From a bacterium (GTDB lineage: Bacteria; Patescibacteriota; Minisyncoccia; JAUYLV01): a stretch of 64,000 bases of DNA. The notes beneath the pieces are model-generated. The model ran no database searches, was not told where the DNA came from, and saw nothing but the letters and a program-made list of their open reading frames with translations. Location: the NCBI GenBank assembly GCA_030649025.1, contig JAUSGO010000031.1:9745-73744 (forward strand), given 5' to 3'. Below, piece after piece: positions 36,745 through 39,065 of the stretch (position 1 is its first letter; each line of letters opens with the position of its first letter). The position numbers and the translations under genes were made by a program.

Positions 36745-36873
36745 TACGTTCTTTTCTGGGCAACACTGCCCAGATTTTTTTAATTTCCAGATCCGCACAC
36801 ACGGGTAACATAAAGCGCCCCCAGTGGGGCGCTTTTCTTCTTCCGATAGCCAAAGGGATGCGAGAATCTGTTT

Positions 36874-37128
36874 CTAGGAAAGATGTTTGGAGACGAGTTT
36901 TGTCATCTCAAACATATCAACCGTCGCCTTTCCGCCGAATACTACCTTCAGAGCCGCATCAGCATTGATATTGCGTTTCTTGGCAGGGTCCTGGAGGTTT
37001 TTGCTTTTAATATACACCCAGAGCTTTTTAACAACTTCCGATCTGGGCATTGGCCCCTCGCCGACTACGACGGCCAACTCCTTACTGACACTCATCGGCT
37101 TCATGAACGCTGAATTTTTTTGCGCCAT
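36874..37128 (-). CDS. SWIB/MDM2-domain protein.
   Basis: LAVVVGEGPMPRSEVVKKLWVYIKSKNLQDPAKKRNINADAALKVVFGG... matches the SWIB domain. Confidence 0.7.
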   Translation of the reverse strand: MAQKNSAFMKPMSVSKELAVVVGEGPMPRSEVVKKLWVYIKSKNLQDPAKKRNINADAALKVVFGGKATVDMFEMTKLVSKHLS

Positions 37129-37282
37129 ATATTGATATTACTTAATAATTATTAATTATCTGTGAGTTCATTATACCTGATTACACTTAAATTTACCATG
37201 GCACTTCGGTGGAAGAGAATTAGGCATGTTTGTACAACGCTGTGCTCCGGCGGCAGGATTCGAACCTGCGACCAAGGGATTA

Positions 37283-37818
37283 CACGTGATCCTCTGCTTT
37301 CGTAGAGGCGCGGACTATATCTTCACCATGATCCGACTATAACCGGACTTTAGGTGCTCTGGTATCTAGTCTCTACGGCGCCCCACCTAAGTCTTGCTTT
37401 GCAAAATTGAGGCAGGTTCCCACGGTATTACCCGTTCTTGCGAACAAGGGCTTCACCGTTATCCCAGAGAGTTCATTCCTAAGTTTCCTTAGGAAGCTGC
37501 GTAAAGCTGGCTTCGATTTCTCGATGGCAATTCGCACACACCAATATACATTTATCTAGCTCCCGCTTAATAGCGTCCCATGAGCGCGTATAACCTTTGT
37601 CACCGATTGCAAACTCTTTAGAAGCTGGGTTGCGGTGATGTAGATCAAGTGCCCAGATGCATTTTTTATATCCGCATACTTGGCATTTTCCTCCTTTGTA
37701 CTCCACCGCAAGCATCTTGAGTTTCCTTCTGCGCTTTGCAACCGCTTTCTTCAGGTATTCCGCACGATCACGGTATGTGCGTTTTTCGACCTTTGCCATA
37801 TAAAGCCAGCCAATAGCC
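37283..37818 (-). mobile_element. Group I intron (IC3-like core) in the tRNA-Asn anticodon loop, between U35 and U36, carrying an HNH homing endonuclease gene.
   Basis: The 3' core reads GUAGAGACUAGAUACC...CACCUAAAG...UAUAGUCGG with an omega-G before exon 2. It matches my recollection of the Azoarcus tRNA-Ile intron P7-P9 (GUAGAGACUAGACGGCACCCACCUAAGG). The exon-1 end is U and the exon-2 start is UAA. Confidence 0.7.
37479..37799 (-). CDS. HNH homing endonuclease encoded inside the group I intron.
   Basis: CQVCGY...LDLHHRNP...CANCH is an HNH motif flanked by Cys pairs. Start set at MAKVEK, because the longer ORF-track N-terminus overlaps tRNA exon 1. Confidence 0.65.
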   Translation of the reverse strand: MAKVEKRTYRDRAEYLKKAVAKRRRKLKMLAVEYKGGKCQVCGYKKCIWALDLHHRNPASKEFAIGDKGYTRSWDAIKRELDKCILVCANCHREIEASFTQLPKET

Positions 37819-37880
37819 ACAGTCCCCTGCGCTACCGCTGCGCTACGCCGGAGCATAGCGTTGTACATAATTTTTAACAC

Positions 37881-39065
37881 CTAATATCCGCCCAATTTAC
37901 GCAGACTTACGTGCTGGCGGATTTTTTCAATGGCCTTTGCTTCAATTTGCCGTATACGCTCTCTCGTTACGCCAAATTCTTTTCCAACCTCTTCCAGGGT
38001 GTGTGTGATGCCGTCTTCAAGCCCAAAGCGCATCTGCAGGATCTTTTGCTCTCTGGGCGTTAAATCCTTGACGATGATGTTGAGGTGATCTTTAAGAAGC
38101 TTCCGTGCCGCCTGTTGAACGGGTGAGGTCTCCTTTTCATCTTCAATAAACTCCACCAGCGTCGAATCCTCCTCTCCTTCTCCGACCGGCGCTTCCAAAG
38201 ATACCACATCCTGGGAAATTTTTCTAATCTGGCGGATCTTTTCAAGCGCCATTCCCATCTCGCTCGATAATTCCTCGTCGAGCGGCTCTCTTCCCAGATC
38301 CTGCAGAAGCCGCCGTTTGACCTGCGTATATTTGGAAATGGTTTCTACCATGTGCACAGGGATGCGGATGGTGCGCGCCTGGTCGGCAAGGGCGCGGGTG
38401 ATCGCCTGCCTTATCCACCAGGTGGCATACGTGGAAAACTTGTATCCGCGCCGGTAATCGAATTTTTCCACGGCCTTAAAAAGGCCAATATTGCCTTCCT
38501 GTATGAGGTCCAGGAGCGTAAGATTCTGGCTTCTTCCCACATAGCGCTTGGCGATGGATACCACCAGACGCAAATTTGCCTGGGTGAGTTTCTGCCGGGC
38601 CGCTTCTTCGTTTTTTTCAATGAGTTTTGCAAGCTCCACCTCTTCAGCTCCTTTCAGCAAGGGCACGCGCCCAATCTCCCGCAAATACATCTGCACGGAA
38701 TCGTGCGCAGCTCCCTCCGCTTCCCCGGCGTCCCGTTTTTTTCCCTTCGGAACGGCACCTTCTTTGCCCTTCTTCGGCAATGTATCAAAAAATCCCCTTG
38801 TCTCCTTAATAACAATGTTCTGCGTCTCAAGTTCCCGATACAGTTTTTCAATATCCTCGACGTTTTCTTCGGCATTCGGCACGAAATGGAGGACTTCCAG
38901 TTCCGTAACAAATCCTCTCTCGCGGCCGCGGCGCAGCAACTCCTCAATATGCGTCCGGTCAAGGCTTATGCGTGCCTCGCGTTTTTTCGCGCTACGGCGT
39001 TTTTGAGAACGGCGCGTCGCATGCGCCTTTCGGCTCCGTATGATCTTTTTTTGCTTCTTTTTCAT
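37881..39065 (-). CDS. rpoD: RNA polymerase primary sigma factor.
   Basis: Sigma70 regions 1.2 to 4 ([13 protein letters not shown] and the region 4.2 helix-turn-helix). Confidence 0.9.

Follow-up and report, generated by a model that had tools for sequence, protein, structure and literature searches.

Group I introns between positions 35 and 36 of tRNA-Asn(GUU) have been described in Patescibacteria by Nakagawa, Amikura, Omae and Suzuki (mSystems, January 2026, PMC13011429; bioRxiv 10.1101/2025.07.03.662931, July 2025), who reported them as invisible to standard tools. According to the sections of that paper drawn on here, to which all our statements about it refer, the survey covered 95 complete genomes and found HNH genes in 4 of 333 tRNA introns; PF01844 HNH genes are given for four tRNA-Asn introns. 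HNH-bearing 35/36 introns occurred in Patescibacteria only, and nearly all tRNA introns of this phylum were placed in subgroup IA and none in IC. The intron of GCA_016700035.1 self-spliced in vitro, its ligated tRNA was sequenced, and a terminal G-to-C mutant served as the control. For these close relatives it is established that an essential single-copy tRNA of a reduced genome can hold a self-splicing intron. Here we analyzed a stretch of 64,000 nucleotides (nt) of the contig JAUSGO010000031.1 (positions 9,745 to 73,744; assembly GCA_030649025.1), hereafter the window, which is 64 kb of a larger, metagenome-assembled genome (MAG). We found that its minus strand carries a tRNA-Asn(GUU) gene, the only one for asparagine detected in the window, split between U35 and U36 by a group I intron that contains an HNH endonuclease gene. 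Taken as a whole, with splicing and homing included, we consider this reading highly probable.

The window locus is a further member of the described class. It agrees with the class in host phylum, tRNA, insertion site (between 35 and 36 of tRNA-Asn(GUU)), guide sequence GCAG, failure of the tools, and miscall as tRNA-Thr(UGU) (PMC13011429). An earlier reading of this DNA from its letters alone (the sequence-only reading) had called such introns poorly documented, a view made outdated by that paper and its demonstration of self-splicing in a relative. In its Table S3, the intron of GCA_030583765.1, without an open reading frame (ORF), shares the compact core of the window (...GGGAUAACGGUGAAGCC...GCCGUAGAGACUAGAUACCAGA...GAAGAUAUAGUCC), and the intron of GCA_016699425.1 has an HNH gene of the same family. 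The window locus, lying on a MAG contig, is not among the 95 complete genomes. The split gene consists of the following parts.

37852-37819, minus strand: tRNA-Asn exon 1, 34 nt, positions 1-35, ending ...CUGU with U35 as the last exon base (exact string match).
37818-37283, minus strand: group I intron, 536 nt, between anticodon positions 35 and 36 (Rfam RF00028, covariation of P2-P9, same site in 75 related loci).
37799-37479, minus strand: HNH endonuclease ORF (MAKVEKRTY...TQLPKET*), 106 amino acids plus stop, in the P1 loop; it is the protein annotated by NCBI.
37282-37245, minus strand: tRNA-Asn exon 2, 38 nt, U36 to G73 (exact string match).

Both exon strings were found on the minus strand exactly where the sequence-only reading had placed them. 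After the exons were joined in silico, with the junction reading ...GGGGACUGU followed by UAAUCCC..., ARAGORN called a canonical tRNA-Asn(GTT) of 73 nt, including one base past G73, whose cloverleaf has a GUU anticodon, U1-A72 and G73. The last two are features of bacterial tRNA-Asn. We scanned metagenome contigs for the spliced junction, obtaining 29 uninterrupted tRNA-Asn genes, and the ligated exons of the window were identical at 72 of 72 positions to the uninterrupted genes of six contigs (L098, L100, L101, L103, L105 and L112; L numbers are our handles for loci and contigs). Therefore, judging from these sequences, the match is far beyond chance, and the earlier identification as tRNA-Asn(GUU) is confirmed. 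The gene does not encode CCA (37245-37250; G73 is followed by CAC), and about 40% of the related loci encode ...GGAGCCA. Over the whole window, default ARAGORN missed the tRNA-Asn locus and reported tRNA-Ser(GGA) as the sole tRNA.

In its intron mode (-i), ARAGORN reported tRNA-Thr(tgt) i(33,536) for the window, and it treated most related loci in the same way. This would be a tRNA-Thr(UGU) gene with an intron between positions 33 and 34, in which exon 1 ends ...GGGGACU, the intron ends ...AUCACG, and exon 2 starts with UGUAAUCCC. The two-base ambiguity, which the sequence-only reading had missed, arises in the window because GU/GUG is repeated at both borders, and there the Thr boundary, too, places U ahead of the 5' site and ends the intron with G. 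We compared 75 distinct related split genes and found that exon 1 ends with CUGU, exon 2 starts with UAA, and the last intron base is G in all 75, so the U before the 5' splice site and the terminal G claimed for the window are invariant. The third-last intron base, which would be the terminal one in a tRNA-Thr, is G in only 50 of the 75, and the Thr boundary would put A or U at the intron end in the other 25. Only the 35/36 junction satisfies the terminal-G rule at all 75 loci, which therefore supports tRNA-Asn. The guide GCAG also pairs with CUGU and not with GGACU, and it is the Asn version that, once ligated, is identical to real uninterrupted genes and has a tRNA body with the tRNA-Asn features named above. 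The same two-base ARAGORN miscall, tRNA-Thr(UGU) 33/34, has been documented for tRNA-Asn introns, and the ligated product of a relative was sequenced as Asn 35/36 (PMC13011429). We conclude that the Thr(UGU) call is a 2-nt boundary artefact, refuted for practical purposes, and give it almost no credence.

In a 901-nt search, the Rfam family Intron_gpI (RF00028) matched 37539-37291 over the whole model (1-253) with 37.6 bits (E=7.2e-8). Because this score lies below the gathering threshold, independent structural evidence was built. We aligned 12 introns that have the compact core of the window, from the guide sequence to the terminal G, and drew P2, P3, P4, P5, P6, P6a, P7, P8 and P9 by hand on the alignment. 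The elements of the core are as follows.

37478-37493, minus strand: P2 hairpin CCUAAG-GAAA-CUUAGG, compensatory changes in 5 of 6 pairs, GAAA loop invariant, holding the ORF stop UAG.
37464-37469, minus strand: P3 5' strand CUCUGG, pairing with 37362-37357, compensatory changes in 4 of 6 pairs, 100% paired.
37377-37459, minus strand: P4-P5-P6 domain, with P4 ACGGU/ACCGU, P5 GCCC/GGGU, P6 GG/CC and P6a CCUGCC/GGUGGG.
37365-37376, minus strand: J6/7 and P7 5' strand, GUAGAGACUAGA, with P7 being GACUA at 37371-37367, invariant in the 12 homologues.
37357-37362, minus strand: P3 3' strand CCAGAG, from the covariation alignment.
37324-37356, minus strand: P8 (CACC...GGUG), compensatory changes in 2 of 4 pairs, containing a decoy UAUAGUCGG and an invariant CCUAA...GG motif.
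37313-37323, minus strand: J8/7 (AAGAUA) and P7 3' strand (UAGUC), invariant.
37291-37308, minus strand: P9 hairpin CCUCUAC-GAAA-GCAGAGG, compensatory changes in 5 of 7 pairs, one A.C mismatch in the window.
37283, minus strand: terminal G (omega-G), G in 75 of 75 related loci.

The results showed that 94% of the cells in the P2-P9 structure hold standard pairs and that 23 of the 45 pairs have compensatory, both-side changes among the 12 homologues. In the control with the 3' partner slid by 1-3 columns, 31-50% were paired, and none of 500 shuffles reached the observed pairing or covariation score. P2, P3, P6a, P8 and P9 each have several compensatory pairs, while P7 (GACUA/UAGUC) is invariant and its support is conservation without covariation. 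The minimum free energy fold of the 221-nt window core by itself yielded P2, P3, P4, P5, P6, P8 and P9 (z=-3.2). The CCUAA...GG motif in P8 appears to resemble a GAAA-tetraloop receptor. The intron has a conserved P3-P9 core with the P3/P7 pseudoknot, supported by covariation, and this core together with the full-length Rfam match bears out the earlier assignment to group I; P3-P9 and the U.G pair of P1, which had been suggested as a check of the fold, were both found. The proposed P7-P9 signature needs correction. Its strings are present in the core, where they run J6/7-P7-P3'-P8. Of the UAUAGUC copies, the wrong one had been taken for the 3' strand of P7: UAUAGUCGG is variable distal P8 (37341-37333), and J8/7-P7' is in fact formed by the invariant GAUAUAGUCC (37321-37312), of which the five bases UAGUC (37317-37313) pair.

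The insertion site, the guide sequence and the HNH family are common to introns of two core architectures. The compact core, found in the window and 14 other loci, has 43-54 nt between the P7 strands, and the longer core (L001, L011, L057 and GCA_016700035.1) has extra hairpins between P7 and P3' and 63-107 nt. The window core is without these hairpins of its sister introns, and the closest HNH relatives of the window (L018, L019 and L011) have the longer core. In L078 (1425-2209) the tRNA-Asn intron measures 712 nt and its P7 strands are 206 nt apart, which suggests a further insertion in the P7-P8 region. The window intron is presumably similar to the compact Azoarcus-type tRNA introns in its anticodon-loop insertion, its very short P1 and its small core without peripheral extensions. 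These introns would also share the GAAA L2, the CCUAA-type P8 motif and the J6/7-P7 GUAGAGACUAGA. The Azoarcus tRNA-Ile(CAU) intron, conventionally IC3, interrupts another tRNA at another position and has no ORF. The same J6/7-P7 12-mer, which the sequence-only reading had likened to the Azoarcus intron, is also present in IC3 tRNA-Leu introns of Acidobacteriota (PMC13011429, Table S5).

The 5' part of the intron has the following features.

37800-37818, minus strand: intron 5' leader, preceding the ORF start codon and forming the 5' side of the P1 loop.
37803-37811, minus strand: 5' strand of a putative loop-closing helix, GGCUGGCUU, from RNAduplex.
37505-37513, minus strand: 3' strand of the putative loop-closing helix, AAGCCAGCU, codons E-A-S, ending a few nt before the guide sequence.
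37497-37500, minus strand: internal guide sequence GCAG, pairing with the exon end CUGU as P1, in which a U.G wobble marks the splice site; the same in all 75 loci.

The last base of the 5' exon is a U, predicted to pair with the guide G in P1. The guide lies 319 nt into the intron, past the body of the ORF, and in the ORF-less relatives (L042, L057, L089 and GCA_016700035.1) GCAG follows the 5' splice site by 5-11 nt; therefore, the ORF sits in the P1 loop. The 19-nt leader right after the 5' splice site was searched for a guide sequence and gave no convincing pairing, and an extension of P1 into the anticodon stem, sought across the homologues, showed no consistent pairing. We found that the last eight codons of the ORF (FTQLPKET) and its stop, at 37478-37503, overlap the guide GCAG and the whole of P2, so that TTT ACG CAG CTT CCT AAG GAA ACT TAG is at once the ORF 3' end and the guide with P2, and the stop codon lies in the P2 3' strand. 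Proteins encoded inside introns keep a conserved C-terminal TQLP(K/E)E and the free-standing copies of L042, L057 and L089 lack it, which matches an ORF end that doubles as guide and P2. Complete translation of the ORF should preclude P1 and P2, and their formation should in turn preclude complete translation.

In the window, the leader and the end of the ORF are predicted to form a helix of 10 base pairs (bp) (-16.9 kcal/mol, z=-2.5; RNAduplex), 9 of which are covered by the coordinates above. Helices of 10-12 bp in the same register and with different sequences were obtained for L018, L019, L011, L025 and L039, where the codons end 3-4 nt before the guide. Across 72 ORF-bearing loci the helix is not general (mean z -0.27) and holds only in the clade of the window, in which it would close the P1 loop around the ORF. 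The sections of PMC13011429 drawn on here describe neither an ORF located in the P1 loop nor its overlap with guide and P2.

The 106-amino-acid protein has 2705 homologues, with 65-79% identity among the best 120. The sequence-only reading had proposed an intron-borne HNH gene and had taken the N-terminal extension given by an ORF finder for an artefact, and both points hold: the 133-amino-acid version reads through tRNA exon 1, and the window protein has C39, C42, H54, H55, C88, N90, C91 and H92, residues that do not vary among 25 homologues. All 31 family-invariant residues, including CxxC, HH, N and CxxCH, are present, and the gene is under strong protein-level conservation. In searches with the Pfam HNH model, 19 of 25 family members matched at E<=0.01 (best 7.3e-5). 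The family profile matched the HNH domain of a group II intron maturase (PDB 6me0, 6me0_C; E=1.7e-4) and aligned to the catalytic end of McrA. The protein is a putative endonuclease, and its target would be tRNA-Asn alleles without the intron.

Several points weigh against the reading of this locus as an intron-split, functional tRNA-Asn gene. The RF00028 score falls short of 50, the gathering score, and a whole-window Rfam scan with gathering cut-offs returned the same tRNA-Ser only and nothing at the tRNA-Asn locus. P9 contains the A.C mismatch. P1 has only 4 bp, both of its strands are invariant in the 75 loci and hence give no covariation support, and a P10 helix sought across the homologues showed no consistent pairing. 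The match of the window protein to Pfam HNH (PF01844) reached 17.6 bits (E=0.0044) against a cut-off of 21.4. The experimentally validated relative GCA_016700035.1 has a different core architecture, and its 234-nt intron has no ORF. Only 64 kb of the genome is visible, so a second intact tRNA-Asn elsewhere is possible. Of the checks that the sequence-only reading had suggested, Rfam in sensitive mode and PF01844 gave matches that fall below the cut-offs, and tRNA finding with introns gave the Thr(UGU) call. Its argument for obligatory self-splicing, drawn from the lack of another tRNA-Asn in the window, is weak, since the window is part of a larger genome. For intron detection, the published survey used E<1e-4 and not the gathering score (PMC13011429).

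The sub-gathering score, the P9 mismatch and the limited view of the genome would also fit a decayed intron that no longer splices, in which case the locus would be a tRNA pseudogene and a second, intact tRNA-Asn elsewhere would do the work. Against this, we found that every core helix is intact, that P7, J6/7 and J8/7 match the family-invariant sequence, that the ORF is complete and retains every invariant residue, and that the exons are identical to functional-looking genes of relatives. A relic is therefore improbable in our judgement, though less so than a tRNA-Thr. The window copy would splice by analogy with the relative whose self-splicing at 35/36 is in the literature.

The neighborhood of the gene is as follows.

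40887-39091: dnaG, upstream of tRNA-Asn.
39065-37881: rpoD, between dnaG and tRNA-Asn.
37128-36874, minus strand: SWIB/MDM2-domain gene, 84 amino acids, directly downstream of tRNA-Asn (Pfam E=8.9e-30).

The named relatives of RpoD (65-81% identity) are all Patescibacteria, Parcubacteria or Portnoybacteria, and the host is to all appearances a Patescibacteria (Parcubacteria-type) bacterium. We compared the rpoD-linked locus among relatives, as the sequence-only reading had recommended for intron-less tRNA-Asn genes. An uninterrupted tRNA-Asn lies just downstream of rpoD in L101, L103 and L112 (RpoD 69-78% identical to that of the window) and also in L129 and L130 (RpoD 77%), and from their gene order these five loci are syntenic empty sites. 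At the same place the L057 intron is ORF-less and a free-standing HNH gene lies upstream, and L074, L035, L077, L090, L096 and L059 have an ORF-bearing intron. The closest RpoD relatives, L127 (95%, partial protein) and L128 (81%), have no tRNA after rpoD and are uninformative on the intron. This patchy presence would be the pattern expected of a mobile intron. An exact look-up of the SWIB protein for intron-less strain variants returned one 1.2-kb contig only, without the tRNA, and a scan of 36800-38100 for promoters and terminators gave nothing above shuffled expectation. A 79% identical copy of the SWIB protein adjoins the tRNA-Asn locus in L035.

Homologous loci were collected by exact protein look-up (16) and by genome scan (80), and in almost all fetched loci the HNH gene lies inside a split tRNA of the same kind. 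Relatives of the HNH family were found in at least 413 species-level genomes by the genome scan and in 2705 protein clusters. A free-standing HNH gene lies immediately upstream of tRNA-Asn in L042 (1501-2118) and L057 (1501-2161) and immediately downstream in L089 (1178-1812), and the 35/36 introns beside these genes are ORF-less, with lengths of 234 nt (L042), 230 nt (L057) and 186 nt (L089). From these arrangements, the HNH gene inside the P1 loop, free upstream and free downstream look like stages in the invasion of an intron by an endonuclease gene.

The free-standing copies could also be taken to mean that the insert in the window is an HNH mobile element other than an intron, which inserted itself into the tRNA gene and broke it up, in the way of many genomic islands at tRNA genes. 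A duplicated tRNA end is missing from the insert, the two tRNA halves fit together exactly, and the 220 nt after the ORF fold as a covarying group I core; in the free-standing cases, too, the tRNA still has an ORF-less group I intron at the same site. The presence of the catalytic core refutes this explanation, which we consider the least probable of all.

The free-standing genes next to ORF-less introns also resemble another arrangement. Bonocora and Shub reportedly proposed "collaborative homing" for phage introns, in which a free-standing endonuclease gene lies beside an ORF-less intron. L042, L057 and L089, with the HNH gene immediately outside a tRNA gene that has an ORF-less intron, are arranged in this manner, unlike the window, where the HNH gene is inside the intron. 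In cyanobacterial tRNA introns, LAGLIDADG genes occur in tRNA-Arg(CCU) and PD-(D/E)XK genes in tRNA-fMet, and phage group I introns carry HNH or GIY-YIG genes. These introns and that of the window are alike in being self-splicing group I introns, by prediction in the window, whose catalytic core loops out the gene of a homing endonuclease, a putative one in the window. The window differs from them in that its endonuclease is a small (about 105 amino acids) zinc-binding HNH protein, its ORF lies in the P1 loop and not in P6, P8 or P9, and the 3' end of the ORF overlaps the guide sequence and P2.

Contigs labelled as Omnitrophota also have an HNH-bearing tRNA-Asn 35/36 intron: L019 (JAJVIE010000001.1, 312 kb; 1445-2078), L018 and L021. 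Their endonucleases are 72-75% identical to that of the window, and the 75% relative, on the 312-kb contig, is among its closest. The RecR gene adjacent to the L019 locus has Omnitrophica-named relatives (one of them Eisenbacteria) and no Patescibacteria-named ones. One may read these observations to mean that the HNH-bearing tRNA-Asn intron is an actively mobile element, far commoner than the published survey of complete genomes suggests, with transfer across phyla and a coupling of translation to splicing. Within that reading, the copy on an Omnitrophota contig together with the relatives of its RecR implies the cross-phylum transfer, and a link between translation and splicing would come from the loop-closing helix and from the overlap of the ORF end with guide and P2. 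We hold it to be slightly less probable than its contrary.

For the window locus, we propose the following mechanism. In the primary transcript, the exon end CUGU would pair with the guide GCAG as P1, placing the U.G wobble at the splice site, and the P2-P9 core would fold around P1; in the clade of the window, the 5' leader and the codons just before the guide may pair over about 10 bp and so close the P1 loop around the ORF. Free guanosine would attack after U35, the terminal G (37283) would then take its place, and the exons would be ligated into a 72-nt tRNA-Asn, to which CCA would be added. The HNH endonuclease presumably cuts intron-less tRNA-Asn alleles and drives homing.

When standard tools miss such a gene or label it as tRNA-Thr, the genome seems to be without tRNA-Asn and its completeness estimate is lowered. 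This consequence for annotation, the main one in the case of the window, has already been pointed out (PMC13011429). The breadth of the HNH family, its free-standing copies, the Omnitrophota-labelled copy and the overlap of ORF and guide go beyond the sections of that paper drawn on here. The first three of these concern the HNH family and not the window locus, and together the four could extend the picture of limited mobility given there.

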